From assembly GCA_049472295.1 (NCBI GenBank), contig JBLIRM010000002.1, positions 1 through 48,800 on the forward strand: a stretch of 48,800 nt of DNA, written 5' to 3'. The notes under the pieces are model-generated. The model saw nothing but the letters and a program-made list of their open reading frames with translations. It did not search any database and was not told the origin of the DNA. Numbering within the stretch: position 1 is the first letter of the stretch; each line of letters opens with the position of its first letter. Positions 3,936 through 16,273 of this stretch are shown piece by piece. Origin of the DNA: a bacterium. GTDB lineage: Bacteria > SZUA-182 > DTGQ01 > JAFGSM01. Both the position numbers and the translations under genes were made by a program.

Positions 3936-6599
3936 TCAATTGCGATTCAATCTCCAGTCATAATCCTGGAAATCGATTGTGACAGTATCTCCCTTTTCTT
4001 GTAGGAATCCTTTATCTTTATCATTATGTAAATACCGGGAAACAAACCTCAGTCTTTCAGACTGCGTCTTTCCAAAATCCTCCGCATACCATTTGAATAT
4101 GCGTGAAAGCGAGACACGATTTCTTTCCCGGTCTATGATGACGCCGCCGGAATTCAGAAAGGTCTCCGCAGCTATGGCCAATTCCGCATCCAGGTTCTCA
4201 GCAGTATAGACCTCTATAGGCGGGCAGGAAGAGGAAGCACACACCAGGGCAAAGTGTACTCGCGGCTCAATGGGTGAAATGACCTGTTTGAGCCTTCGAT
4301 CCCTTCCCTTAAATAGTTTGAAAATGGCATTGGGAGGGCGTCTATTCCCACGCAGGATGCCATGTTCGATATCATCAGGACTGAAGAGGCTTTTCCCGAT
4401 CTGATAGTGAATCACCCTGAAAAAGTTCCGGACCTCTTTCACGGAGTCCCTGATGCCCAGTTCGATCACCCCATGGATCACGATGGCATTATACAGATTG
4501 ATCCAGAAGGCCAGCCTTTCCTTTCTGTCTTTTAGGGAATCCAGATCCAGCGATTTCAGGTTGTTACTCAACTCCAGATACTCTTTATAAACCTTTGAAT
4601 GAGCCATCTGTTCGTAGGCCACCCTGCCGCGTTTTGTGTCAAAAAACGCCCCTCTCAGGATGTTGATCATCCGCTTCAGCTTTGGTGCAATCTCATTGGG
4701 CCGGATATGTTCTCTTGGATCACCCTCATTGAGGACAACCTTACTGGTCAGCAAAAACCTTTTACCGCGGGAATCCTCTATGGTCTCAGCTGTCCCTGCC
4801 ATATCACCTTTCGCCCTATTCAGGGCGATAACACTGTTAATATAACCGATGTGGGTAAATGCCTGGGGAAAATTCCCCAGGGCCTCTTTCCATTTCACGT
4901 CATATTCCTCTGAGAAAAGGCCAAGAGGATTGGCTGCCTTTTCCAGAAGACGAAGGAGGGATTCCGCTTCATCCAGACGATTCAAACCGAGCAGGCAATC
5001 CACCAGCCAAAATGTACAAAGCAAAAAGGTCCCCTCTTCTCCGGACAATCCATCATCCGCAATATAGCGATAGAGGAGGCCGTCATGGCTCAATTCCTTT
5101 TGTATGGCCTCAATGGTTGCAATCACACGGGGATCATCAAATGGAAGAAAGCCCATGATAGGTATCAATAGATTGCTCGAATCCAGGGCATCCGTCTCAT
5201 AGTGCTGAACATAGGCATTTTTCTCCTCACTCCATCCCCTTTCCATCACCTCTTTCCTGATGGCCTTTTTGGTCTCCTCCCATTTTTTTAGATCCCCGGG
5301 AAAACCGTATCTCCGGGCGATTGTAATCCCCCGGTCCAGGGCCACCCAGCACATCACCTTGGAATAAACAAAGAGGTAAGTCCCGCCGCGAACCTCCCAA
5401 ATCCCGGAATCCTTCTCCTGCCAATGCTCAACAACATAATCGCAGATGTCACGCAAAAAAGGCCAGAGGTGAACATCGATCTTCCCCACATAGTCCGAAA
5501 GCTTCAATGCGGCATCCATGATCTCTCCGTATATATCAAGCTGCTTTTGATTTGCGGCCTCGTTTCCAATCCGAACGGGACGAGATCCCTTATATCCGTC
5601 AAGATGGGATAGTGTCTCCTCAGGCATGTTCTTCTCTCCACGAAGGCCGTACATGATTTGTAAAGCGCCGGCCCCGTGCTCGGAGATCAGCCTTTCTATC
5701 CATCTAAGATAACCCTCTGTCTCGGAAAGGTGGCCCAGATTATAGAGGGCCTTCAATGTAAAGGATGTGTCGCGCACCCAGGTAAAACGGTAATCCCAGT
5801 TTCTCACTCCTCCGATCTCCTCAGGCAGGGATGTGGTTGCAGCAGCAGCGATGGTACCTATAGGGCCGTAATAGAGGAGTTTCAGAACCAGTGCGGAACG
5901 GTTGAGCATCTCCCGATAAGGCCCGAGATTGACGGACCGGCCCGTTTCACTCCTTTTGAGCCACTGCCTCCAGAATTTTTCAGTGTCCAGTAAGACCTTC
6001 TCCGCAACTCCCGGGTCGATCCCATGACATTGCTTAGCCCCGTAAATCAAATGAAACCATATGAGATCCCCTTCTGATAAATCCCAATCCGCTGATGCGA
6101 TCTCCTTTTCTATCTTCAAAGGACGGGTACAGGAGAGCGTGATGCTCTCACCATCCCCCTGTGCGATAAGCCCTCCTCTGGATTTTTTGACCGAGGTATG
6201 GGCCATGGCATAATTGAACCTGGGTTCAAAAACGACCTTTATCCGCATACCTCCTTTAGTCATCTTTACTAATCGATACAGTTCATGCTTTACTGCCTCC
6301 GGTTCCTCTTCATCACTATAGGGCACTGGCATGAAGTCGATCAGTTCCATTAATCCGGATCTTGTTCTGAACCTGGTCTTTAAGATATTTGTGTCCGGCA
6401 GATATTCAGCAACCGAATCATAATCTTCTGAAGGAAAGATAGAGAATCGGCCCCCCTTTTTATCGTCAAGAAGTGCCCCGAATATGCTCGGATCATCGAT
6501 ATGAGGGAAACACAGCCAGTCGATTGAACCATCAATGCCAATCAGGGCGATGGAATGTAAGTTGCCGATGATGCCGTAATCGCTGATTTTTTTATACAT
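3936..6599 (-). CDS. glycoside hydrolase family 15 (glucoamylase/trehalase-like) fused to a C-terminal DUF547 domain
   Basis: 887 aa. The N-terminus MYKKISDYGIIGNLHSIALIGIDGSIDWLCFPHIDDPSIFGALLD, plus WDYRFTWVRDTSF, is typical of bacterial/archaeal GH15 enzymes. The last ~250 aa (LAFWINLYNAIVIHG...HFALVCASSSCPP...FKWY) match the DUF547 signature. Confidence 0.85.
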   Translation of the reverse strand: MYKKISDYGIIGNLHSIALIGIDGSIDWLCFPHIDDPSIFGALLDDKKGGRFSIFPSEDYDSVAEYLPDTNILKTRFRTRSGLMELIDFMPVPYSDEEEPEAVKHELYRLVKMTKGGMRIKVVFEPRFNYAMAHTSVKKSRGGLIAQGDGESITLSCTRPLKIEKEIASADWDLSEGDLIWFHLIYGAKQCHGIDPGVAEKVLLDTEKFWRQWLKRSETGRSVNLGPYREMLNRSALVLKLLYYGPIGTIAAAATTSLPEEIGGVRNWDYRFTWVRDTSFTLKALYNLGHLSETEGYLRWIERLISEHGAGALQIMYGLRGEKNMPEETLSHLDGYKGSRPVRIGNEAANQKQLDIYGEIMDAALKLSDYVGKIDVHLWPFLRDICDYVVEHWQEKDSGIWEVRGGTYLFVYSKVMCWVALDRGITIARRYGFPGDLKKWEETKKAIRKEVMERGWSEEKNAYVQHYETDALDSSNLLIPIMGFLPFDDPRVIATIEAIQKELSHDGLLYRYIADDGLSGEEGTFLLCTFWLVDCLLGLNRLDEAESLLRLLEKAANPLGLFSEEYDVKWKEALGNFPQAFTHIGYINSVIALNRAKGDMAGTAETIEDSRGKRFLLTSKVVLNEGDPREHIRPNEIAPKLKRMINILRGAFFDTKRGRVAYEQMAHSKVYKEYLELSNNLKSLDLDSLKDRKERLAFWINLYNAIVIHGVIELGIRDSVKEVRNFFRVIHYQIGKSLFSPDDIEHGILRGNRRPPNAIFKLFKGRDRRLKQVISPIEPRVHFALVCASSSCPPIEVYTAENLDAELAIAAETFLNSGGVIIDRERNRVSLSRIFKWYAEDFGKTQSERLRFVSRYLHNDKDKGFLQEKGDTVTIDFQDYDWRLNRN

Positions 6600-6873: not shown

Positions 6874-7131
6874 ATCAAATTTAAAGCTGCTCAGCACAGA
6901 TGAAAGGATCAGCCCGACGAAATCATAAACCGGACTTAAACAGATTGTTTGAATGATACGAAAAGAATATGATCTTTATATCTTTTCAATGATAACCTTT
7001 GAAGGGAGGGGATGTCAATCAAGGATGGATTCGTAAAATGACCGGAAATGGTTTGAAAAAAAATAATGATTCAAGTAACATGGATATATTGGAAACATGA
7101 TTTCAATCACCATAATAAGGAGGGAAGGATT

Positions 7132-7317
7132 ATGGCCGGTTGTCACGATATGAAAAAGGGTGAGATTTACATGTGTGAGGATTGCGGGATGGAACTGCAA
7201 GTCATAAAGGAATGCAAGGACGTTGGAAAACCTGCTGCGGATTGCTCCTGCCACAGTGAAGAAGAGTCTTGTACAATCGAATGCTGTGGAAATCCTTTGG
7301 TTAAAAAGGGATCATAG
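7132..7317 (+). CDS. desulforedoxin-like small Cys-rich metalloprotein with a Cys/His-rich insertion
   Basis: 61 aa from the ATG at 7132, with an AAGGAGGGAAGG RBS at 7118-7129. GEIYMCEDCGMELQV...TIECCGNPLVKK mirrors the desulforedoxin pattern G-x-Y-x-C-x-x-C-G...CCG. About 20 extra residues (ECKDVGKPAADCSCHSEEESC) are inserted between the two halves. Confidence 0.6.
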   Translation: MAGCHDMKKGEIYMCEDCGMELQVIKECKDVGKPAADCSCHSEEESCTIECCGNPLVKKGS

Positions 7318-7496
7318 GACTTTCTTTTTGAAATATCCCGGATAATGGATCGCAGGATGACAACCTTTTTTTAGATTGATGGATGTGTAAAACTGCCTGT
7401 TTCAATTCCTGTTTGTTGTTATACTGATAAGGAGAAAGACGTCTCTTTGAAATGGAATAAAACAAGGTTGTAATGACCATTCAAGAGGGAGAAGGC

Positions 7497-7748
7497 ATGG
7501 AAAAGCCCGTAAAGATCTATACTCTCAGCACATGTTCCCATTGTAAGGCCACCAAAAAGTTGCTGGACGACTGCCATGTGGAATACAAATTTACGGATGT
7601 GGATTTGCTTGAAGGGGCCGAAAGACAGGCCATCCTTGAAGAGGTGAAAAAGCTGAATCCCAGATGCTCCTTCCCTACAATCATTATTGGAGACAGGGTG
7701 ATTGTAGGATACAAGGAGGCCGAGATCAGGGAGGCCCTCGGACTATGA
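7497..7748 (+). CDS. glutaredoxin-like (thioredoxin-fold CxxC) protein
   Basis: 83 aa from the ATG at 7497. VKIYTLSTCSHCKATKKLL carries the CxxC active site, followed by FPTIIIGDRVIVGY. Its stop overlaps the next start (ATGA at 7745-7748). Confidence 0.8.
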   Translation: MEKPVKIYTLSTCSHCKATKKLLDDCHVEYKFTDVDLLEGAERQAILEEVKKLNPRCSFPTIIIGDRVIVGYKEAEIREALGL

Positions 7749-8077
7749 GCGAAGTAGAAAAGTTATACGAGATGTTAAAAAATATCCAGGAGTCGAAGGG
7801 TTACCCATTTAACAAGGACAAAGAGAGGGTTTTTGAACTCCTGGAGGCCCTTCTTCTGAACAAGAAACGTTATGGCTACATGTCCTGTCCGTGCAGGCTG
7901 GCATCCGGGGACCGGGAAAAGGACAAGGACATCCTCTGTCCCTGTGTTTACAGAACACCTGATGTAGCGGAATATGGCAGTTGCTACTGCAACCTTTATG
8001 TTTCGAATGAATGGAACGAAGATAAAATCCCCCACCCTTACGTGCCTGAAAGAAGGCCCATCGAAAAGATGCCCTAA
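7745..8077 (+). CDS. ferredoxin:thioredoxin reductase catalytic (beta) subunit-like protein
   Basis: 110 aa. It has the CPC-x15-CPC-x13-CYC cysteine pattern (CPCRLASGDREKDKDILCPCVYRTPDVAEYGSCYCNLY) of FTR catalytic subunits and is translationally coupled to the Grx-like gene. Confidence 0.85.
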   Translation: MSEVEKLYEMLKNIQESKGYPFNKDKERVFELLEALLLNKKRYGYMSCPCRLASGDREKDKDILCPCVYRTPDVAEYGSCYCNLYVSNEWNEDKIPHPYVPERRPIEKMP

Positions 8078-8540: not shown

Positions 8541-10115
8541 ATGGGGTCTTATTTCGTACTACCTTTCAGTGGATATTCCATGTATCCCCTCATCAAGCCG
8601 GGGGATCGACTGGTTGCCAAACCCGTTCACGCCCATTCCCTCAGGGTGGGTGATATTGTGGCCATCCCGGGTCCCGATAATGGACATGACATGGTCCATC
8701 GACTCATTAATGTATCACCCGATGGCAGAGGGATGACCAAGGGGGATGCCATGCTGAAGCCGGATCACAAGCAGGTCGAACTCACAATGGTTAGGGGCAG
8801 GGTTGAGGCGATCATCAGGGGACGCCGCTTGATCCCCATTTCGTCAGACCAGGGACCCGATATCAAAGGATTATATGGAAAGCTCGGTCAGAAAGGCATC
8901 TCTTACAGCTTTTTGAAATTAAAAAACAAGCTTCTATTTAATCAACTCCTTTCGAGGGATCAAAGCAAGAGACACAGCAAGGAAAGGGCCTTTATTCTCT
9001 CCACACTCCGGGGGAAGGTCCCGCCAGATCTTACGTCACCCGACTGGGATGCATTAACGGAAATGGCTTACAGGGAGGGTGCGACAGGGATTCTTTACAT
9101 GCGGCTCAAGGAGCAAGGAATCCCGGATGCCGTGCTTCTCCCATTCGAAAATTATCAACGCAATACCACCTTTATGAACCTGATCCATATAAGGGCAGTG
9201 GAAAGGCTGGAAGAGGCCTTAAAGGGAAAAGGGATCCAGGTAATGACCTTTAAGGGGGTCTGTCTCCTGGACATCGCCTACCCGCAGTTCGGGATGCGTT
9301 TCATGGACGACATCGACCTCATCGTGCGGCCGGAAGACCTGGAGCCATTTATGGGGATACTTCGCATTCTGGGTTATGAAAATCCAGGGCCATTATCCCA
9401 TCTATTCGTCAAAGACAATGTCACTATTGATCTTCACACCCATGCCCTGCACACAGATCGCATCGGAGGCAGGGGGGCCCTCTTCCCCTCCGGGATGGAG
9501 CCGCTTTGGGCATCCGCCATACCCTGGAAAAGCGGTTATCAGTATATCAAGCGGCCCGATGACGCAGACCATGTCCTTCTCCTCTGCCTGCACCTCTTAC
9601 AGCATTCCTTCTCCAGGCTCATCTGGTTGGAGGATATCCGCCGCCTGTTGGATCAAGGGGACCCGCACTTCTGGGAAAAGCTCAGAAACAGGTCCATCCT
9701 TTTCAAGCAGCGAAAGTCCCTTTCCTATACCCTCTATCTCCTGAGACTGCTTTTCAATTACGAACCTCCCCAGGAGTCAGTACTCAGCCTCTTATCTCAA
9801 AATATCTCCAAGGCTGAAAGGATGCTTCTGAACATCTATGCCACGGGCACACCGCTCAATCGCCTGGGCGTCCTCCTGGAATATTTCAGTATAACAAGAT
9901 TCAGAGATCGAATCCGATTTGGTTGGGAGACGCTGTTCCCAAAAAACAATGTCCTTAACCAGGAATTTGGCGTGTCTTCAATAGTTGAAAGGCTTTTCTT
10001 TTACCCTGGGCGTTTTTTTGAATTGATGAGCCTTTTGATCAAACTGATGCTCTCGATCCCGGGGGCAATGATCCGATCCACAAGATGTAAAAGGATAAAA
10101 AATACAGATGAATAA
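8541..10115 (+). CDS. fusion protein: N-terminal SipW/Sec11-type S26 peptidase domain plus 'uncharacterised nucleotidyltransferase' (NTP_transf_5-like) domain
   Basis: 524 aa. The first ~100 aa carry SGYSMYP (Ser nucleophile), GDIVAI, VHRLI (His) and TKGDAM, which is the motif order of SipW-type peptidases, and there is no N-terminal TM anchor. Residues ~170-330 (REGATGILYMRLKE...MTFKGVCLLDIAYPQFGMRFMDDIDLIVRPEDLEPFMGILRILGYE) look like the nucleotidyltransferase family found in lasso/RiPP clusters. Confidence 0.7.
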   Translation: MGSYFVLPFSGYSMYPLIKPGDRLVAKPVHAHSLRVGDIVAIPGPDNGHDMVHRLINVSPDGRGMTKGDAMLKPDHKQVELTMVRGRVEAIIRGRRLIPISSDQGPDIKGLYGKLGQKGISYSFLKLKNKLLFNQLLSRDQSKRHSKERAFILSTLRGKVPPDLTSPDWDALTEMAYREGATGILYMRLKEQGIPDAVLLPFENYQRNTTFMNLIHIRAVERLEEALKGKGIQVMTFKGVCLLDIAYPQFGMRFMDDIDLIVRPEDLEPFMGILRILGYENPGPLSHLFVKDNVTIDLHTHALHTDRIGGRGALFPSGMEPLWASAIPWKSGYQYIKRPDDADHVLLLCLHLLQHSFSRLIWLEDIRRLLDQGDPHFWEKLRNRSILFKQRKSLSYTLYLLRLLFNYEPPQESVLSLLSQNISKAERMLLNIYATGTPLNRLGVLLEYFSITRFRDRIRFGWETLFPKNNVLNQEFGVSSIVERLFFYPGRFFELMSLLIKLMLSIPGAMIRSTRCKRIKNTDE

Positions 10116-11802
10116 CCATCTTCAGATCATAAAAAGGATCATGGAAAAAGGCAGATCATACATCCCGGCATTCATAGCCCTTGCAGGTATGAATGCGGTC
10201 CTGGTACCTGTGGAATTCTATGGGCTCCTTCTTTCGCGAAAGATGATCGATCGAGGTTTCCTGCTCCGGAACTGGCCTACGATCAAAGGGATCATATTGA
10301 TCCTGTTTGGCCTTTTTGTTCTTCGAAGCCTCATCAATTACGCAAATGCAATTTTGTCCACGAATGTTCAGCTTCGAATGAATCAGAGATTCCAGAACGA
10401 ACTCTTCTCCCATCTTTTGCATCTGCCTATGCCTTTCTTTATGGAAGAATCCACCGGTCAACTGATGTCACGCCTTCTGGATGATGCCACACTTTTTTCA
10501 GCCATCCTAAAGGCAATCTTCCACAATGCACTTCTCGACCCGCTGAAACTCCTCCTCCTGACAACACTTCTTGCATATTTCAATCTTCGCCTCTGTTTGA
10601 TTATGGTGGTTTCAACCTTTTTTACCTTTCTGGTGATCCGCTGGATGGGGCATAGATTACGCGAAATCTCAAAAAGGACTCAGGAGAAGAACGCAGCCAT
10701 ATATAGTTTTGTGGCACAGATATTCTCTAACATCGAACTGATCAAATCAAAAATCACAGAAAAAAAGGAATCCGAAAGATTTCATCATCACATTGATGAG
10801 TTCATCGAACTGGCTCTCAAGACCTTAAAGATTTCACTCATTGCACAGCCCATCTTACAGATCCTGAAATATGCCACCCTCGGCATTGTGTTCATTTACG
10901 GAAGCTGGATGATATCAAAGGACATCCTGACCATCGGTACACTCACCATCTTCCTGGGAGCGACCTACCTCTTTTTCAATACACTGAATTCCCTCGGAAA
11001 TACCTATGGAGATCTGAGTGAGAATCTGGCCCGCATGGAAATCCTTTTCTCGATTCTGGATACCCCGCCAGAAGGGTCCGAAAAACAAACTTCCGTGATC
11101 GTCACGCCCCATATCAATACGATTGAATTCAAGCATGTATCCTTCGGATACCATCCCTCACAGCCGGTCCTGAACGATCTCTCCTTTTCCGTGAACAAGG
11201 GAGAGACCCTGGGTATCACCGGTCAAAGCGGCAGCGGCAAGACCACCATCATCCGCCTCCTGGTCGGATTTTATGAACCGAACACAGGTGAAATCAATCT
11301 GGACAAGGTATCCCTTCGCCACTGCGATCTGGCTACTCTCCGGCAAGCCATAGGGATCGTCTTTCAGGAAAACCTCATATTCAATGACTCCGTCAGGTAC
11401 AATATCGAATATGGCCTCGGAGATATCCCTGAATCAAAGATTATTCAGGCTGCCAAAACGTCCCAGGCCCATGAATTCATCCGGGCCATGCCCGGACAGT
11501 ATGAGACCATCATCGGTGAACAGGGGAAAAGGCTCTCAGGCGGTGAAAAGCAACGATTGGCCATTGCCAGGGCCATTGTGGCAGAACCCGAGATCCTAAT
11601 CCTGGATGAAGGCACCTCTTTTCTGGAGGTGGAACAGGAAAAGGCCATTCTAAAAAGGATCAGGCATATGAGAAAGGAAAAGATCACCATCATTATCTCA
11701 CACCGGCTTTCAGCCATGGAATCGGTGGATAGGATGCTGACGCTGGATAATGGCCGGATGATCGAGACAAATTTTCGGGCACTGGCAGGGATTTCTTATT
11801 GA
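10108..11802 (+). CDS. ABC exporter, fused permease/ATPase (type-I exporter, no C39 peptidase domain)
   Basis: 564 aa. An N-terminal six-TM-like region is followed by Walker A GQSGSGKTT, signature LSGGEKQRLAIARA, Walker B ILILDEGTS and H-loop IIISHR. It overlaps the upstream gene by 8 nt. Confidence 0.9.
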   Translation: MNNHLQIIKRIMEKGRSYIPAFIALAGMNAVLVPVEFYGLLLSRKMIDRGFLLRNWPTIKGIILILFGLFVLRSLINYANAILSTNVQLRMNQRFQNELFSHLLHLPMPFFMEESTGQLMSRLLDDATLFSAILKAIFHNALLDPLKLLLLTTLLAYFNLRLCLIMVVSTFFTFLVIRWMGHRLREISKRTQEKNAAIYSFVAQIFSNIELIKSKITEKKESERFHHHIDEFIELALKTLKISLIAQPILQILKYATLGIVFIYGSWMISKDILTIGTLTIFLGATYLFFNTLNSLGNTYGDLSENLARMEILFSILDTPPEGSEKQTSVIVTPHINTIEFKHVSFGYHPSQPVLNDLSFSVNKGETLGITGQSGSGKTTIIRLLVGFYEPNTGEINLDKVSLRHCDLATLRQAIGIVFQENLIFNDSVRYNIEYGLGDIPESKIIQAAKTSQAHEFIRAMPGQYETIIGEQGKRLSGGEKQRLAIARAIVAEPEILILDEGTSFLEVEQEKAILKRIRHMRKEKITIIISHRLSAMESVDRMLTLDNGRMIETNFRALAGISY

Positions 11803-11917
11803 AGATTCAAATTTTTGATTGATAACGCCCTCCAACGTTTCAAACCCGATTAACCGAAAAGTATATAGGTTTTTTCCCTCTGGATCGATAACACTTTGCA
11901 AGGAGGTCATACATAAA

Positions 11918-12196
11918 ATGGCAGAGCAAAAGAAACCGGTTGCCAATCCTTCAATAGTGCTCAGAGAGGAGTTCGATGACTGGGCCATCCTTTTTGATCC
12001 TGATTCCGGTCATGCCTTTGGGCTCAATCCTGTGGGCGTGTTTATATGGAAACACCTGGACGGAGACCATACCATCGAGGATATATACAAAGAGATCAGA
12101 GCAAAATACAAGGACATACCACATAAAACAAAGAAAGACATCAAAGATTTTGTCCGAAACCTTCTGGAAAAGGGTTTAACGGGATACGAGGCCTAA
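11918..12196 (+). CDS. PqqD-family peptide chaperone (RiPP recognition element)
   Basis: 92 aa from the ATG at 11918, with an AGGAGG RBS at 11901-11906. ILFDPDSGHAFGLNPVGVFIWKHLDGDHTIEDIYKEI...DIKDFVRNLLEKGL matches the PqqD pattern. It ends 7 nt upstream of a radical SAM gene. Confidence 0.8.
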   Translation: MAEQKKPVANPSIVLREEFDDWAILFDPDSGHAFGLNPVGVFIWKHLDGDHTIEDIYKEIRAKYKDIPHKTKKDIKDFVRNLLEKGLTGYEA

Positions 12197-12203
12197 GACC
12201 GAC

Positions 12204-13304
12204 ATGAAAATCATGAAAACACCCAGGTCAGTGGACATTGCCATAACGAACCAGTGCAATCTCCGGTGTACATATTGCAGCCATTTTACAAGCGCCGGTG
12301 ATGTGGACCAGGACCTTCCTCTGAAAGAATGGCTCCAATTCTTCAAAGAACTGGGCCAATGTGCGGTCATGGATCTGACCCTCGAGGGCGGGGAGCCATT
12401 CTGCCGCAAGGACCTGAGAGAGATCATTCAGGGGATCGTGGAAAATCATATGCGCTACCTGATACTGAGCAACGGGACTCTGATCACGGAGGATATGGCC
12501 GCCTTTCTCTCCTCCACCGGCCGGTGTAACGGGGTGCAGGTTTCTGTGGACGGCTCGACCCCGGCCACCCATGATGCAAGCCGGGGGCAAGGCACATTCT
12601 CAAAGGCCATCCAAGGGATCAAATCCCTTCAAAAACAGGATATCCCTGTTCATGTCCGCGTGACCATCAACAAATACAATATAGGGGACCTTGATGACAT
12701 TGCGGATCTGCTTTTGGACGAGATCGGCCTTGAGGATTTTTCCACCAATGCCGCCTCTTATATGGGCCTTTGCCGTCAGAATGCCGGGAATATCCAACTC
12801 AGCATAAAAGACCGCTCCGTGGCAATGGAGGCCCTTTTAAAACTTAACAAAAAATACCAGGGACGGATCAATGCCTCAGCAGGTCCCTTGGCTGATTTAA
12901 TACATTGGTCCGAGATGGAAAAGGCCCGCAAGGAGAATCTGGGATGCATGCCCGGGGGGGGATTTTTAACCGGATGCGGTGGGCCGATGAGCAAACTGGC
13001 CGTGCGGGCTGACGGTGTGATGGTCCCCTGTATCCAGTTGAGCCATATCGAACTGGGGCGGATCAACAGGGATAGTCTCCAGGAGATATGGCAGTCGCAT
13101 GAACGACTCGGGAGGCTCAGGCAGCGGTTTCAAATCCCTTTGAGCCGATTCGACTTCTGCAAGGGGTGCGATTACATGGATTATTGTACAGGGAACTGTC
13201 CTGCACTGGCCTATACCATGGTAGGGGAGGAGAATCATCCCAGTCCCGATGCCTGCTTCAGGCGATTCCTGGAGGAGGGGGGGAGCCTGCCGGATGAAAG
13301 ATAG
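12204..13304 (+). CDS. radical SAM / SPASM-domain peptide maturase 1
   Basis: 366 aa. CNLRCTYC (CX3CX2C) sits at the N-terminus. The C-terminal region has GCGGP...VPC followed by CKGCDYMDYCTGNC (CX2CX5CX3C, the canonical SPASM motif). Confidence 0.9.
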   Translation: MKIMKTPRSVDIAITNQCNLRCTYCSHFTSAGDVDQDLPLKEWLQFFKELGQCAVMDLTLEGGEPFCRKDLREIIQGIVENHMRYLILSNGTLITEDMAAFLSSTGRCNGVQVSVDGSTPATHDASRGQGTFSKAIQGIKSLQKQDIPVHVRVTINKYNIGDLDDIADLLLDEIGLEDFSTNAASYMGLCRQNAGNIQLSIKDRSVAMEALLKLNKKYQGRINASAGPLADLIHWSEMEKARKENLGCMPGGGFLTGCGGPMSKLAVRADGVMVPCIQLSHIELGRINRDSLQEIWQSHERLGRLRQRFQIPLSRFDFCKGCDYMDYCTGNCPALAYTMVGEENHPSPDACFRRFLEEGGSLPDER

Positions 13305-14532
13305 ATATCCGTTGAACCAGATATATTTCTATCTGACCGAGGGGTGCAACCTGCGATGCCGTCACTGCTGGATTGCACCCAAATACCAGACGGAATCCCA
13401 AACCTGCCGGACACTGGACCCGGACCTTTTCCAAAAGATCTTGAATCAGGCAAGGTCATTAGGGATCTCAGGGGTGAAATTAACCGGGGGTGAACCGCTT
13501 CTTCATCCCAGGATCCCCGAGATCCTGGAGATTGTGCGTCATGAGGCCCTTCAGCTCACTGTGGAGACCAACGGGGTCCTCTGTACGCCGGAGCTTGCCC
13601 GTGCCATGGCAGACTGCAAGCATCCTTTTATATCGGTAAGCCTGGACGGCGCCGATGCCGGAACCCATGAGTGGGTCAGAGGGGTGAGCGGCTGTTTTGA
13701 TGCCTGCCTGGAAGGCATCCGGAATCTTGTTAGGGCAGGCCTTCATCCGCAGATTATCATGACGGTCATGCGCCGGAATAAGGAGCAGATGGAGCCTGTG
13801 GTGCATCTTGCAGAGCACTTAGGGGCGTGTTCGGTCAAGTTCAATGTGGTCCAGCCCACAGCCAGAGGGGAAAAGATGCACCAGTCCAATGAGGCCCTGA
13901 GCATTGAGGAGCTTCTGGATCTGGGGAGATGGGTGGAGGATACCCTCTCTGTCTCGACCCGTCTGTCCGTTCGATATTCCCATCCGCCGGCCTTTCGTCC
14001 GCTGGGAAGCATGTTTGGAGAACAAGGAGACGGATGCAGTGTCTGCGGGATTCTGAATATTCTGGGGGTCCTGGCTGACGGTTCCTATGCCCTTTGCGGT
14101 ATCGGCGAGACCATGCCCGATCTGGTTTTCGGCCATGCGTCATTGGACCCCTTGGAGGAGATCTGGAAAAATACCCCTGTGCTCTTGGAGCTCCGAAAGG
14201 GTCTTCCCCAGCGTCTTGAAGGGATCTGCGCTGACTGTATCATGAAGGGGATCTGCCTGGGAAGCTGTATTGCCCAGAACTATTACCGCAGCAAGAATAT
14301 CTGGTCACCATTCTGGTATTGTGAGGAGGCATTGAACCAGGGCATCTTTCCCGAGAACCGGATGAGCACCAACCCATATCCCCATTGTAAAAAAGCAAAC
14401 AAACCTATGAAAGAAAAGCACCATAAAGGCCAAAACAAAAGGGCCTTTACTGGGCGTAACACAGAAAAGGCAGGGATACCGAACAGGTATCGGTCTGCCC
14501 GGAGGGGAGATAACCATGTCCTTACCATATGA
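13294..14532 (+). CDS. radical SAM / SPASM-domain peptide maturase 2
   Basis: Start taken at the ATG at 13294 (MKDRYPLNQIYFYLTEGCNLRCRHCW), overlapping maturase 1 by 11 nt. SPASM motif CADCIMKGICLGSC. A ~50-aa basic, low-complexity C-terminal tail overlaps the next ORF. Confidence 0.85.
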   Translation: MKDRYPLNQIYFYLTEGCNLRCRHCWIAPKYQTESQTCRTLDPDLFQKILNQARSLGISGVKLTGGEPLLHPRIPEILEIVRHEALQLTVETNGVLCTPELARAMADCKHPFISVSLDGADAGTHEWVRGVSGCFDACLEGIRNLVRAGLHPQIIMTVMRRNKEQMEPVVHLAEHLGACSVKFNVVQPTARGEKMHQSNEALSIEELLDLGRWVEDTLSVSTRLSVRYSHPPAFRPLGSMFGEQGDGCSVCGILNILGVLADGSYALCGIGETMPDLVFGHASLDPLEEIWKNTPVLLELRKGLPQRLEGICADCIMKGICLGSCIAQNYYRSKNIWSPFWYCEEALNQGIFPENRMSTNPYPHCKKANKPMKEKHHKGQNKRAFTGRNTEKAGIPNRYRSARRGDNHVLTI

Positions 14533-14740
14533 GAAACCCGTCCTGGTCCCATTCCGGTTTGATCAGACTCAAGTGGGGAGAGGGAAATGCGCAACCGGCT
14601 CCGGGGATTCCGGGAATTGCCAGCCCGGAACGGCACCTGCAGGGAAATGCCTTTCCGGTACGGATGATTTGGTGATACCAAAAAAATGCGAACCCGGGGC
14701 AGTCGCATCAAATAAATGTACTGCAGGTGGCGTAAACTGA
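14516..14740 (+). CDS. candidate RiPP precursor peptide, five [K/N]-C-x-x-G repeats
   Basis: 74 aa with a GGAGGGGAG RBS at 14502-14510. A Cys-free N-terminal part (MSLPYEKPVLVPFRFDQTQVGRG) is followed by GKCATGS, GNCQPGT, GKCLSGT, KKCEPGA and NKCTAGG, with Cys at residues 25/35/45/58/68. It lies immediately after the two maturases. Confidence 0.7.
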   Translation: MSLPYEKPVLVPFRFDQTQVGRGKCATGSGDSGNCQPGTAPAGKCLSGTDDLVIPKKCEPGAVASNKCTAGGVN

Positions 14741-15645
14741 ATAAAAAAACGCAATCAAAAAAGGGAAAGGGATACCTGATCCGCCTGGCCGATGGCCAGG
14801 TCTGGCATATGACTGCCTCCGAAGAGATCTCTCCCTGGGTCGGGAGGCTGGCATCCATGATGGAACTCGGAGAATATCAATCCAAGGGATACCCCAGGCT
14901 GATATTCGTCCGGGGAAGATCAATCGAAACACCGGCTAATTCAATGGCACAAAAAAATCTCCCCGAAAAGGGCTGGGGCAGCAGAGACTTCAGGAGTGTT
15001 CAATTATGGTTCCATCCGGAGGTGCCGGATGTTATCTGTGAAATCGGACCCGGCTCCGATCATGAACTGGACATTCTGAGGATGTGGCTGTCCCTTGATC
15101 CTATTTATCAGAGGGCACAGGAATCGGGTGGCCTCCCCTTTCATGCGGCATTAATCGAAAGGGATGGGATGGGTGTATTACTGGCTGCCCCCGGAGATAC
15201 GGGGAAATCTACCTGTTGCATGCGAATTCCACACCCATGGCGGGCCTTATGCGATGACGAGGCCCTTGTGGTGCAAAATGATCAGAAACAATATCTGGTG
15301 CACCCTTTTCCGACCTGGAGTGATTACCTCTGGCGAAGATCGCGGCGCACATGGAATGTGCAGCATTATGTCCCCTTAAAGGCACTGTTCTTTCTGAAAC
15401 AGGCTGAGGTGGATGAAGCGCTTCCCATGAAGGAGAGCCAGGCTGCATTATATGCCAACAATGCAGCGATACAGGTATCACGCCGTACCTGGCGACATAT
15501 GGATCGAACGGAGGTCACGGTCACCAGAAAAAGGCTATTCGAAAACGCCTGCCAGCTCGCCAAGGCAATCCCGGCATTCATCCTGAGCGTAAGCATATCC
15601 GGAAGATTCTGGGAGGAGATGGAAAAGGTCATTGAAGATAGATAA
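14716..15645 (+). CDS. HPr-kinase-like P-loop protein (HprK-related / ScmC-like)
   Basis: 309 aa. FHAALIERDGMGVLLAAPGDTGKST (P-loop at 15193-15213) parallels the HprK/P C-terminal domain G-V-L-I-x-G-x-S-G-x-GKS. The start is uncertain: the ATG at 14716 lies inside the precursor ORF, and the next ATG is at 14809. Confidence 0.65.
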   Translation: MYCRWRKLNKKTQSKKGKGYLIRLADGQVWHMTASEEISPWVGRLASMMELGEYQSKGYPRLIFVRGRSIETPANSMAQKNLPEKGWGSRDFRSVQLWFHPEVPDVICEIGPGSDHELDILRMWLSLDPIYQRAQESGGLPFHAALIERDGMGVLLAAPGDTGKSTCCMRIPHPWRALCDDEALVVQNDQKQYLVHPFPTWSDYLWRRSRRTWNVQHYVPLKALFFLKQAEVDEALPMKESQAALYANNAAIQVSRRTWRHMDRTEVTVTRKRLFENACQLAKAIPAFILSVSISGRFWEEMEKVIEDR

Positions 15646-16273
15646 ACGAAAAAAGCCGGCAAAAGTGACATCCATGAACTTCACAGGTCCGAGTATGCGT
15701 CCCATACTCAAGCATGGAGACCTGCTTCAGGTCATTCCCTATGACGGGCAAAAAATTCATCCAGGGGATGTTATTGTTTTTGTTCCTCCGGAAGGGGAGC
15801 AGAGGATTGTTCACCGCGTCATCTCAATCGGCTCCGAAGGCATCCGGACCCGGGGAGACTATTGCACGCATATCGATCCTTGGATACTCAATCCTCACCA
15901 TGTCATCGGACGGGTAATCTATGCCATCCGAGGGAAAAAACAGCAGAGGATATACGGAGGATTTTGGGGGTGTTTATCTGCCATGGCTGTCAGGGCTTTT
16001 CATCTGACAGACGGCATCATATCTTCCCTGTTCAGACCAGTCTATTACTGGATGGCCTGCAAAGGCAGCATCAGACGCTGGACTAAAGGTCTTTTCCAAA
16101 CCCGGGTGCTTTCTTTTAAAAGACCGGATGGCACGGAACTTCAGATTCTTATAGGGAGACGCGTTGTGGGAAGGTGGCTTCCGGGCAAGGATGGGTGGCA
16201 TATCCGGAGACCCTTCCGTCTCTTTGTGAATGAGGCATCCTTGCCGGAGAATCCCTCCAAATCATCAAAATAA
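15632..16273 (+). CDS. SipW/Sec11-type S26 peptidase-like protein without N-terminal anchor
   Basis: GPSMRPILKHGDLL, GDVIVF, IVHRVI and TRGDYC occur in the same order as in the N-terminal domain of the 8541 gene. The C-terminal ~100 aa are unassigned. The track start is a TTG at 15632; an alternative ATG is at 15674. Confidence 0.7.
   Translation: MKIDKRKKPAKVTSMNFTGPSMRPILKHGDLLQVIPYDGQKIHPGDVIVFVPPEGEQRIVHRVISIGSEGIRTRGDYCTHIDPWILNPHHVIGRVIYAIRGKKQQRIYGGFWGCLSAMAVRAFHLTDGIISSLFRPVYYWMACKGSIRRWTKGLFQTRVLSFKRPDGTELQILIGRRVVGRWLPGKDGWHIRRPFRLFVNEASLPENPSKSSK

Follow-up and report, generated by a model that had tools for sequence, protein, structure and literature searches.

The stretch of DNA analysed here (the window: 48,800 nt, positions 1 to 48,800 of contig JBLIRM010000002.1 in assembly GCA_049472295.1, from a bacterium of the GTDB lineage SZUA-182) carries a SynChlorMet (SCM) cassette between positions 8541 and 16273, a gene set predicted to make a peptide that is produced on the ribosome and modified after translation (RiPP). 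An earlier note on this DNA had placed a RiPP-type cassette of eight co-directional open reading frames (ORFs) on the + strand of this region, and direct reading of the translations found all eight in place with the motifs and overlaps described (10108/10115, 13294/13304, 14516/14532, 14716/14740, and 15632/15645). The widest intergenic gap in the cassette is 115 nt, and it shrinks to 16 nt if ScmD starts at TTG 11819. Family assignment was based on the curated cut-offs of NCBIfam/TIGRFAMs and domain content on Pfam; the features are listed below, with bit scores given before the stroke and cut-offs after it.

8541-10115, + strand: S26-NTP_transf_5 fusion protein, 524 aa (PF14907 150.9/31.2 bits; TIGR02228 E 1.3e-8, below cut-off)
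10108-11802, + strand: half-size ABC exporter, transmembrane domain plus ATPase, 564 aa (ABC_membrane, residues 41-292; ABC_tran, residues 355-503)
11918-12196 (TTG 11819 possible as start), + strand: ScmD, PqqD-family peptide chaperone (RiPP recognition element, RRE), 92 aa (TIGR04248 136.2/100 bits; PF05402 63.6 bits)
12204-13304, + strand: ScmE, radical SAM (rSAM)/SPASM protein, 366 aa (TIGR04250 612.6/400 bits)
13294-14532, + strand: ScmF, second rSAM/SPASM protein, 412 aa (TIGR04251 613.1/400 bits, residues 5-357)
14516-14740, + strand: ScmA-type precursor peptide, 74 aa, five Cys (profile of syntenic peptides E 1.2e-16; TIGR04252 20.1/35 bits)
14716-15645, + strand: ScmC, two-domain P-loop protein with PEPCK/HprK-like fold, 309 aa (TIGR04249 314.9/125 bits)
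15632-16273 (ATG 15674 as alternative to TTG 15632), + strand: S26b, stand-alone anchorless S26 (SipW/Sec11-type) peptidase, 213 aa (PF10502 25.5/22.9 bits)

The scores of ScmD, ScmE, ScmF, and ScmC all exceed the curated cut-offs, and by these four enzyme and chaperone models the region 8541-16273 is a complete SCM cassette and a full member of the family. Its components are co-directional and are joined by overlaps or short gaps, and equal clustering was seen in 80 loci; since the same gene set recurs in 80 loci of other genomes, the arrangement is not due to chance. The family is already catalogued in TIGRFAMs/NCBIfam and routinely annotated (ScmC homologues bear that name at JGI and NCBI, and the Pfam family is PF27840), and the window holds an ordinary member of it. 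The earlier note, whose expected Pfam content (Radical_SAM plus SPASM twice, PqqD, NTP_transf_5, S26, and ABC_membrane plus ABC_tran) was found, had thus named the right family, but a mere resemblance to SynChlorMet understated the case. Its statement that no precursor had been assigned to the system was mistaken, as NCBIfam has a ScmA model (TIGR04252), and the combination of an rSAM set with HprK-like, NTP_transf_5, and S26 proteins, which it had regarded as unusual, turned out to be the normal SCM layout in dozens of genomes. Comparison with the SCM reference cassette (ScmA TIGR04252, ScmC TIGR04249, ScmD TIGR04248, ScmE TIGR04250, and ScmF TIGR04251) revealed that the window shares with it the grouping into one operon, in which a Cys-repeat precursor separates ScmF from ScmC. 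It differs in having the NTP_transf_5 (NT5) and ABC genes upstream of ScmD instead of downstream of the S26 gene, a further S26 domain joined to the NT5 protein, a ScmF with a basic tail of 55 aa, and a ScmA under the narrow TIGR04252 cut-off.

Homologues of ScmC numbered 848 at E<=1e-5 in a 90% clustered database, and 907 clusters were obtained at E<=1e-30 in a library of 50%-identity representatives. A total of 80 loci were collected with a ScmC profile from species-representative genomes, and their gene order was determined by tblastn with the window proteins. These 80 genomes span about a dozen bacterial and archaeal lineages, with bacterial hosts in Thermodesulfobacteriota (Syntrophobacterales, Syntrophales, Desulfobacterales, and others), Aminicenantes, Calditrichota, Omnitrophota, Saganbacteria/Margulisbacteria, Brocadiaceae, Chlorobiaceae, Fibrobacterota, and Eubacteriales, and archaeal hosts in Methanocella and Methanotrichaceae. 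The prevailing order was ScmD-ScmE-ScmF-precursor gap (200-700 nt)-ScmC-S26-NTP_transf_5-ABC. In the 38 loci flanked by 6 kb or more on each side, S26 was detected in 32, ScmD in 30, ScmF in 28, ScmE in 27, the ABC exporter in 19, and NT5 in 17, the last count being a lower bound at a tblastn identity of only 22-28%. The frequent presence of S26, NT5, and ABC genes in other loci indicates that peptidase, nucleotidyltransferase, and exporter are normal members of the SCM system. The closest matches to the cassette of the window were found in Desulfobacteraceae and in metagenome-assembled genomes (MAGs) labelled ‘delta proteobacterium’, with 65-75% identity for ScmE and ScmF. The genes flanking the cassette in the window (glutaredoxin-like, FtrB-like, apgM, trehalase-like, and others) had no match in any of the 80 loci, which places the cassette limits at about 8541-16273; on the same ground, the upstream glutaredoxin and FtrB genes and the downstream apgM were ruled out as members.

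Two modules devoid of rSAM genes were also observed (L048, 9527-14591; L073, 9538-14773), both with the order ScmD-ScmC-160-aa ORF-ABC-NTP_transf_5 and with neither ScmE/ScmF nor a precursor detectable in the locus. The MAG that contains L048 also contains L016 with its full cassette, and partial modules of this type may rely on enzymes or precursors encoded elsewhere.

The 74-aa ORF at 14516-14740 comprises a leader (MSLPYEKPVLVPFRFDQTQVGRG) and a core (KCATGSGDSGNCQPGTAPAGKCLSGTDDLVIPKKCEPGAVASNKCTAGGVN) with five Cys, and is preceded by a Shine-Dalgarno sequence (GGAGGGGAG; GGAGG) about 8 nt upstream. It reached 20.1 bits against the ScmA model TIGR04252 (cut-off 35; E 5e-4) and gave no other family hit. 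This model is narrow: only one of ten syntenic precursors tested (L004-L076) passed its cut-off and four gave no hit at all, so that a score under the cut-off, as in the window, is typical, and automated annotation will miss most SCM precursors. A separate profile, made from 36 syntenic peptides found in other genomes and with the window peptide excluded, matched only the 74-aa ORF among the 1122 stop-to-stop ORFs of the window (E 1.2e-16; runner-up 0.36). In 36 of 46 loci, the gap between ScmF and ScmC contains a small ORF with leader and Cys repeat, and other loci carry such ORFs elsewhere; with the same profile, 92 precursor-like ORFs were counted in 62 of 83 loci, a count that is partly circular. 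By sequence profile and position, the 74-aa ORF belongs to the conserved SCM precursor family. These results bear out the proposal that an rSAM/SPASM and PqqD system of RiPP type is encoded here with the 74-aa Cys-repeat ORF as its syntenic precursor; a consistent lack of such ORFs in homologous loci, which the earlier note had set against its own reading, was not observed.

The precursors have in common the leader motif [YW]-E-K-P-x-L-(I/V)-x-L. About 16 residues past this motif, Gly occupies P1 in 54 of 60 precursors, P3 of the junction holds one of A, G, V, T, or S (51 of 54), and P2 is variable (A-x-G junction); the first Cys lies 1-4 residues from the junction Gly. Within the core, successive Cys are most often 10 residues apart; Gly follows at +3 in 73% of repeats, +4 is S/G/T/N, and Ala stands at +6 in 33%, which corresponds to a C-x-x-G-(S/T/N/G)-x-A pattern. 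Both the length of the core and the number of paralogues are hypervariable (3-19 Cys and up to 6-7 precursors per locus), as is typical of secreted RiPPs rather than of cofactors.

Unusual precursor arrangements were noted in several loci. L012 has six paralogues, some of them encoded on the other strand at a distance of about 8 kb, and L072 has four; L033 also contains a precursor array. L020 has three precursors of 138 aa, each with 19 Cys, among them CC pairs that break the 10-residue pattern. At L008 (7887-8510), ScmD, whose PqqD domain spans residues 25-88, continues in frame into a ScmA-like leader (FTYERPMLVDL) and a repeat core with 9 Cys, forming one protein of 207 aa; no ScmE or ScmF occurs within 10 kb, and a gene with an HDOD domain stands between the fusion gene and ScmC. 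A similar ScmD-ScmA fusion at L001 has an apparently disrupted reading frame.

ScmE and ScmF both contain Radical_SAM and SPASM domains according to Pfam, and the stretches CNLRCTYC...CKGCDYMDYCTGNC and CNLRCRHC...CADCIMKGICLGSC were read in their translations, each protein having an N-terminal CX3CX2C and the complete CX9-15GX4C...CX2CX5CX3C...C SPASM pattern. The two proteins are distant paralogues of each other (86-102 bits). Of the solved relatives, the thioether synthase SkfB (84.8 bits) is nearest to ScmE, with PqqE second, and BlsE (N-terminal half only), PqqE, and SkfB are nearest to ScmF. Membership in the cofactor rSAM families was rejected (PqqE 109/381, MftC 99/265, AhbD 127-136/500, and NirJ 112/515 bits), and no pqqA-like or mftA-like gene was present; the identity as cofactor-making or enzyme-activating rSAMs that the earlier note had named as a refuting outcome is thus not borne out, with PqqE, MftC, and NirJ/AhbD far below cut-off and the activases by extension. 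ScmF runs about 55 residues past the end of the TIGR04251 model (14365-14532), and this Lys/Arg/His-rich tail enters the start of the precursor gene, where other loci show a non-coding gap of 100-300 nt instead.

The P-loop of ScmC, GVLLAAPGDTGKST, was read directly in the translation. When the AlphaFold (AF2) model of the protein (predicted local distance difference test, pLDDT, 84; predicted TM-score, pTM, 0.84) was compared with the PDB by Foldseek, the top matches were all phosphoenolpyruvate (PEP) carboxykinases (PEPCK; E 6e-8, TMq 0.44-0.52), and a sequence profile search of the PDB returned only HprK/P chains, in the P-loop region (E 0.03-0.8). HprK falls in the same fold superfamily as PEP carboxykinase. 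The ScmC signature consists of H143, G-x-G-V-L-L, G163-K-S-T166, and C-D180-D, of which H143, G163-K-S-T166, and D180 are invariant in 20 homologues; we take H143, the Walker A Lys, and the Asp pair to be the counterparts of the catalytic His, Walker A Lys, and Asp pair of HprK/P. ScmC is a putative peptide kinase or phosphotransferase with the HprK-type kinase signature intact, and the earlier description of the protein as HprK-like is upheld by both its PEPCK/HprK fold and its HprK-aligned signature.

In the protein encoded at 8541-10115, an S26 domain at about residues 1-100 (GYSMYP...VHRL...TKGD) precedes the NTP_transf_5 domain at residues 166-406, which contains a DDIDL motif. Without exception, the 62 cassette S26 domains compared, both window domains among them, have S21 in the SM.P box, H61(-R62) in the HR box, and (G75-)D76 and D82 in the GD...D box, and this Ser-His-Asp arrangement is that of the SipW/Sec11-type signal peptidases. 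No N-terminal hydrophobic anchor was found on either window S26 domain (maximum KD19 0.93-1.05). The two SipW-type domains noted earlier thus lack an anchor and keep the catalytic residues; a minor caveat is that S26a and S26b reached only 34.8 and 48.0 bits against the curated signal-peptidase cut-off of 51.85 (TIGR02228). The cassette S26 domains are predicted to be divergent soluble relatives of SipW/Sec11-type signal peptidase, with S26b as the putative leader peptidase, and an S26 gene directly follows ScmC in most loci. The S26-NT5 fusion occurred in 2 of 34 reference loci, and at least 50 full-length homologues mark it as a recurrent subtype in metagenomes; at L081 and L083, fusion homologues adjoin an ABC exporter, with ScmC-rSAM-rSAM-PqqD-PqqD next to them on the other strand. 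No relative of the fusion was detectable among solved structures. The exporter at 10108-11802 is MsbA/HlyB-like, with scores below every equivalog cut-off and a homologue in the 19 well-flanked loci counted above. Pfam confirmed that it has no N-terminal C39 peptidase domain, as had been noted earlier, and a separate leader peptidase is therefore needed. A double-glycine leader cleaved by a C39 exporter was rejected because of the missing C39 domain and the variable P2.

Sacti- and ranthipeptide pathways (SkfB, AlbA, CteB/SCIFF, and PapB/freyrasin) likewise combine an rSAM/SPASM maturase, leader recognition of PqqD type, and a Cys-bearing core, and freyrasin reportedly consists of tandem short Cys-containing repeats with one ring each. 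Unlike these pathways, SCM has its RRE as a separate protein, two distinct maturases, a C-x-x-G repeat with a period of about 10, accessory HprK-like, NTP_transf_5, and S26 proteins, and cross-links that are here only predicted. With the phosphorylated lasso-peptide clusters (paeninodin/pseudomycoidin type) and the HPr-rel-A system, SCM has in common an HprK-family P-loop protein, a PF14907 nucleotidyltransferase, a PqqD-family chaperone, and an ABC exporter. It differs from the lasso clusters in having rSAM enzymes instead, with no lasso cyclase, no B-type protease, and no conserved C-terminal Ser in the precursor; Pfam and NCBIfam gave no hit for a lasso cyclase (Asn-synthase-like) or leader protease B2 among the eight proteins. 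In GeoRSP (TIGR04302/TIGR04303), a system of anaerobes of the Thermodesulfobacteriota type, a chaperone of the PqqD family likewise accompanies an rSAM/SPASM maturase. The thematic overlap with GeoRSP and HPr-rel-A proposed earlier did not extend to membership in either, the scores being well below cut-off for GeoRSP (ScmD 24.1/100 bits; ScmE and ScmF 116.4 and 108.8 bits against 400) and for HprK_rel_A (TIGR04352; ScmC 30.8 bits against 200). Both the sacti/ranthipeptide-like thioethers and the paeninodin-like phosphorylation considered for SCM are analogies.

The reading that we favour, with a probability of about 0.72, is that the SCM cassette is an operon for a peptide that is made ribosomally, modified after translation, and exported, formed along a route whose framework is given by the observed gene identities, synteny, precursor family, and catalytic-residue conservation and whose chemistry is proposed. 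ScmD, as a PqqD-type RRE, would bind the leader and offer the core to the enzymes, and ScmE and ScmF would modify each Cys-centred repeat. The likeliest chemistry, to which we give an even chance by analogy with SkfB, AlbA, CteB, and PapB, would be the formation of intramolecular thioether cross-links with one small ring per repeat, and ScmF would introduce a further kind of link or a different radical modification. Using a nucleotide triphosphate, ScmC would then phosphorylate the peptide, probably on its Ser/Thr-rich repeats, and the NTP_transf_5 domain may further decorate or process the phosphoryl group, as the kinase/nucleotidyltransferase pairs of lasso-peptide clusters suggest. The cytoplasmic Ser-His S26 peptidases would cut the leader after the conserved A-x-G, which in the window peptide falls at VGRG, a predicted cut that fits the -3/-1 rule of type I signal peptidases, and the ABC exporter would secrete the product, for which antimicrobial, signalling, and metal-binding roles are all possible.

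Several observations weigh against this route. No product of an SCM cassette is described in the searchable literature, so that each chemical step is drawn by analogy, and the window peptide falls under the curated ScmA cut-off. ScmE and ScmF are far under the cut-offs of the thioether synthases (SkfB 104/300, PapB 83/340, StsB 93/625, and AlbA 68/850 bits), and membership in these maturase families was rejected on those scores. The sequence similarity between ScmC and HprK is weak and the TM-scores of the structural matches are moderate (E values and TMq as above). No fixed acceptor or phospho-acceptor residue stands out in the precursors: for the acceptor no clear position is seen, S/T/N occupying +4 in just 53% of repeats, and the conserved C-terminal Ser of phosphorylated lasso peptides has no equivalent. 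Finally, in some loci ScmD, ScmC, ABC, and NT5 occur with no ScmE or ScmF nearby, and the two enzyme sets may accordingly not serve one obligatory pathway.

The sub-threshold scores of ScmE and ScmF for all characterised thioether-synthase families, together with their distant relationship to each other, are also what would be expected if the same genes made no thioethers at all and the rSAM enzymes instead catalysed C-C or C-O cross-linking, epimerisation, formylglycine-like oxidation of Cys, or backbone chemistry, yielding a chemically new RiPP class. SPASM enzymes are generally known to catalyse many reactions (e.g., PqqE, MftC, StrB, anSME, and DarE), and two co-conserved rSAMs acting on a repeat with a single Cys imply at least two chemistries. 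Nevertheless, Cys is the only invariant residue of the repeat besides the Gly at +3, ScmE has a thioether synthase as its nearest solved relative, and Cys-repeat cores with a PqqD partner are generally typical of thioether RiPPs, which makes this alternative worth considering but the less probable outcome. We hold it very improbable that the cassette yields a peptide-derived cofactor or an intracellular redox or metal-handling molecule comparable to PQQ or mycofactocin in place of a secreted product. The parts resembling PqqD and PqqE, the place of PqqE among the nearest solved relatives, the anaerobic hosts rich in Fe-S and thiol redox metabolism, and the glutaredoxin-like and FtrB-like genes just upstream in the window would agree with such a molecule, but the PqqE, MftC, NirJ, and AhbD models gave 74-136 bits against cut-offs of 265-515, and the upstream thiol-redox genes are not kept beside other cassettes. 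Moreover, cofactor precursors are highly conserved single-site peptides, unlike the ScmA cores with their variable Cys number and paralogues, and a dedicated ABC exporter and leader-type peptidases are conserved.

As to ScmC and NTP_transf_5, both could act in processing or immunity and not in tailoring of the product (leader activation for cleavage by transient phosphorylation or nucleotidylation, self-protection, or an ATP-driven scaffold), the mature peptide then carrying no phosphate. The lack of a conserved phospho-acceptor position, the NT5-S26 fusion of the window and at least 50 homologues, which physically ties NT5 to leader processing, and the ScmD-ScmC-ABC-NT5 modules with no rSAM genes nearby would suit such a role; against it stand the intact and invariant HprK active-site signature and the decoration of the final product by the kinase/nucleotidyltransferase pairs of lasso clusters, and on balance we regard it as rather unlikely. 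A route like that of class III/IV lanthipeptides, with a kinase step followed by elimination, was rejected, since the cassette has neither lyase nor cyclase and Ser/Thr at +4 shows no conservation.

With regard to the exported peptide that we favour, no described RiPP class unites two rSAM modifications of a repeat, tailoring of HprK-fold/PF14907 type, and release by a soluble S26 peptidase. That the SCM products form a new class of this kind, with C-x-x-G units of about 10 residues each undergoing two rSAM reactions and with additional phosphorylation or nucleotidylation by the HprK-fold and PF14907 proteins before soluble S26 release, is a tentative proposal. If it were true, the class would be widespread in anaerobic bacteria and methanogen-related archaea, and if the chemistry is new, it would add a RiPP class and assign a function to two orphan families of enzymes present in lasso-peptide clusters as well. 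The SCM family is large and phylogenetically broad, and no reported biochemistry was found for it: the searchable literature yielded no publication on the system, its product, or an enzyme activity, which does not disprove that one exists, and the system is not mentioned in the rSAM/RRE papers PMC10288494, PMC7470986, and PMC10114670. As far as could be seen, the present analysis adds to the curated models the extended gene set (S26, NTP_transf_5, and ABC exporter), a broader definition of the precursor, the predicted A-x-G leader-cleavage site, and the intact kinase signature of ScmC, which make the system directly testable.

Outside the cassette limits, three small genes of thiol-redox type lie on the same strand just upstream (7066-8077): a Cys-rich ORF of 83 aa with CxxC pairs (7066-7317), a glutaredoxin-like gene (7473-7748), and an FtrB-like gene (7742-8077), the product of which gave 52 bits against a ‘double-selenoprotein’ family model with a cut-off of 160. 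Further upstream, an 887-aa ORF on the - strand (3936-6599) matches the archaeal-type trehalase TreH1 over its N-terminal 590 residues (408 bits; cut-off 820), followed by a C-terminal extension of about 290 residues with no family assignment. Between 7900 and 16800 of the window, promoter-like sites were at chance level (9 against 9.3 expected), and a simple scan counted 18 terminator-like hairpins against 9.2 +/- 3.4 in shuffled sequences, the majority of them within coding sequence.

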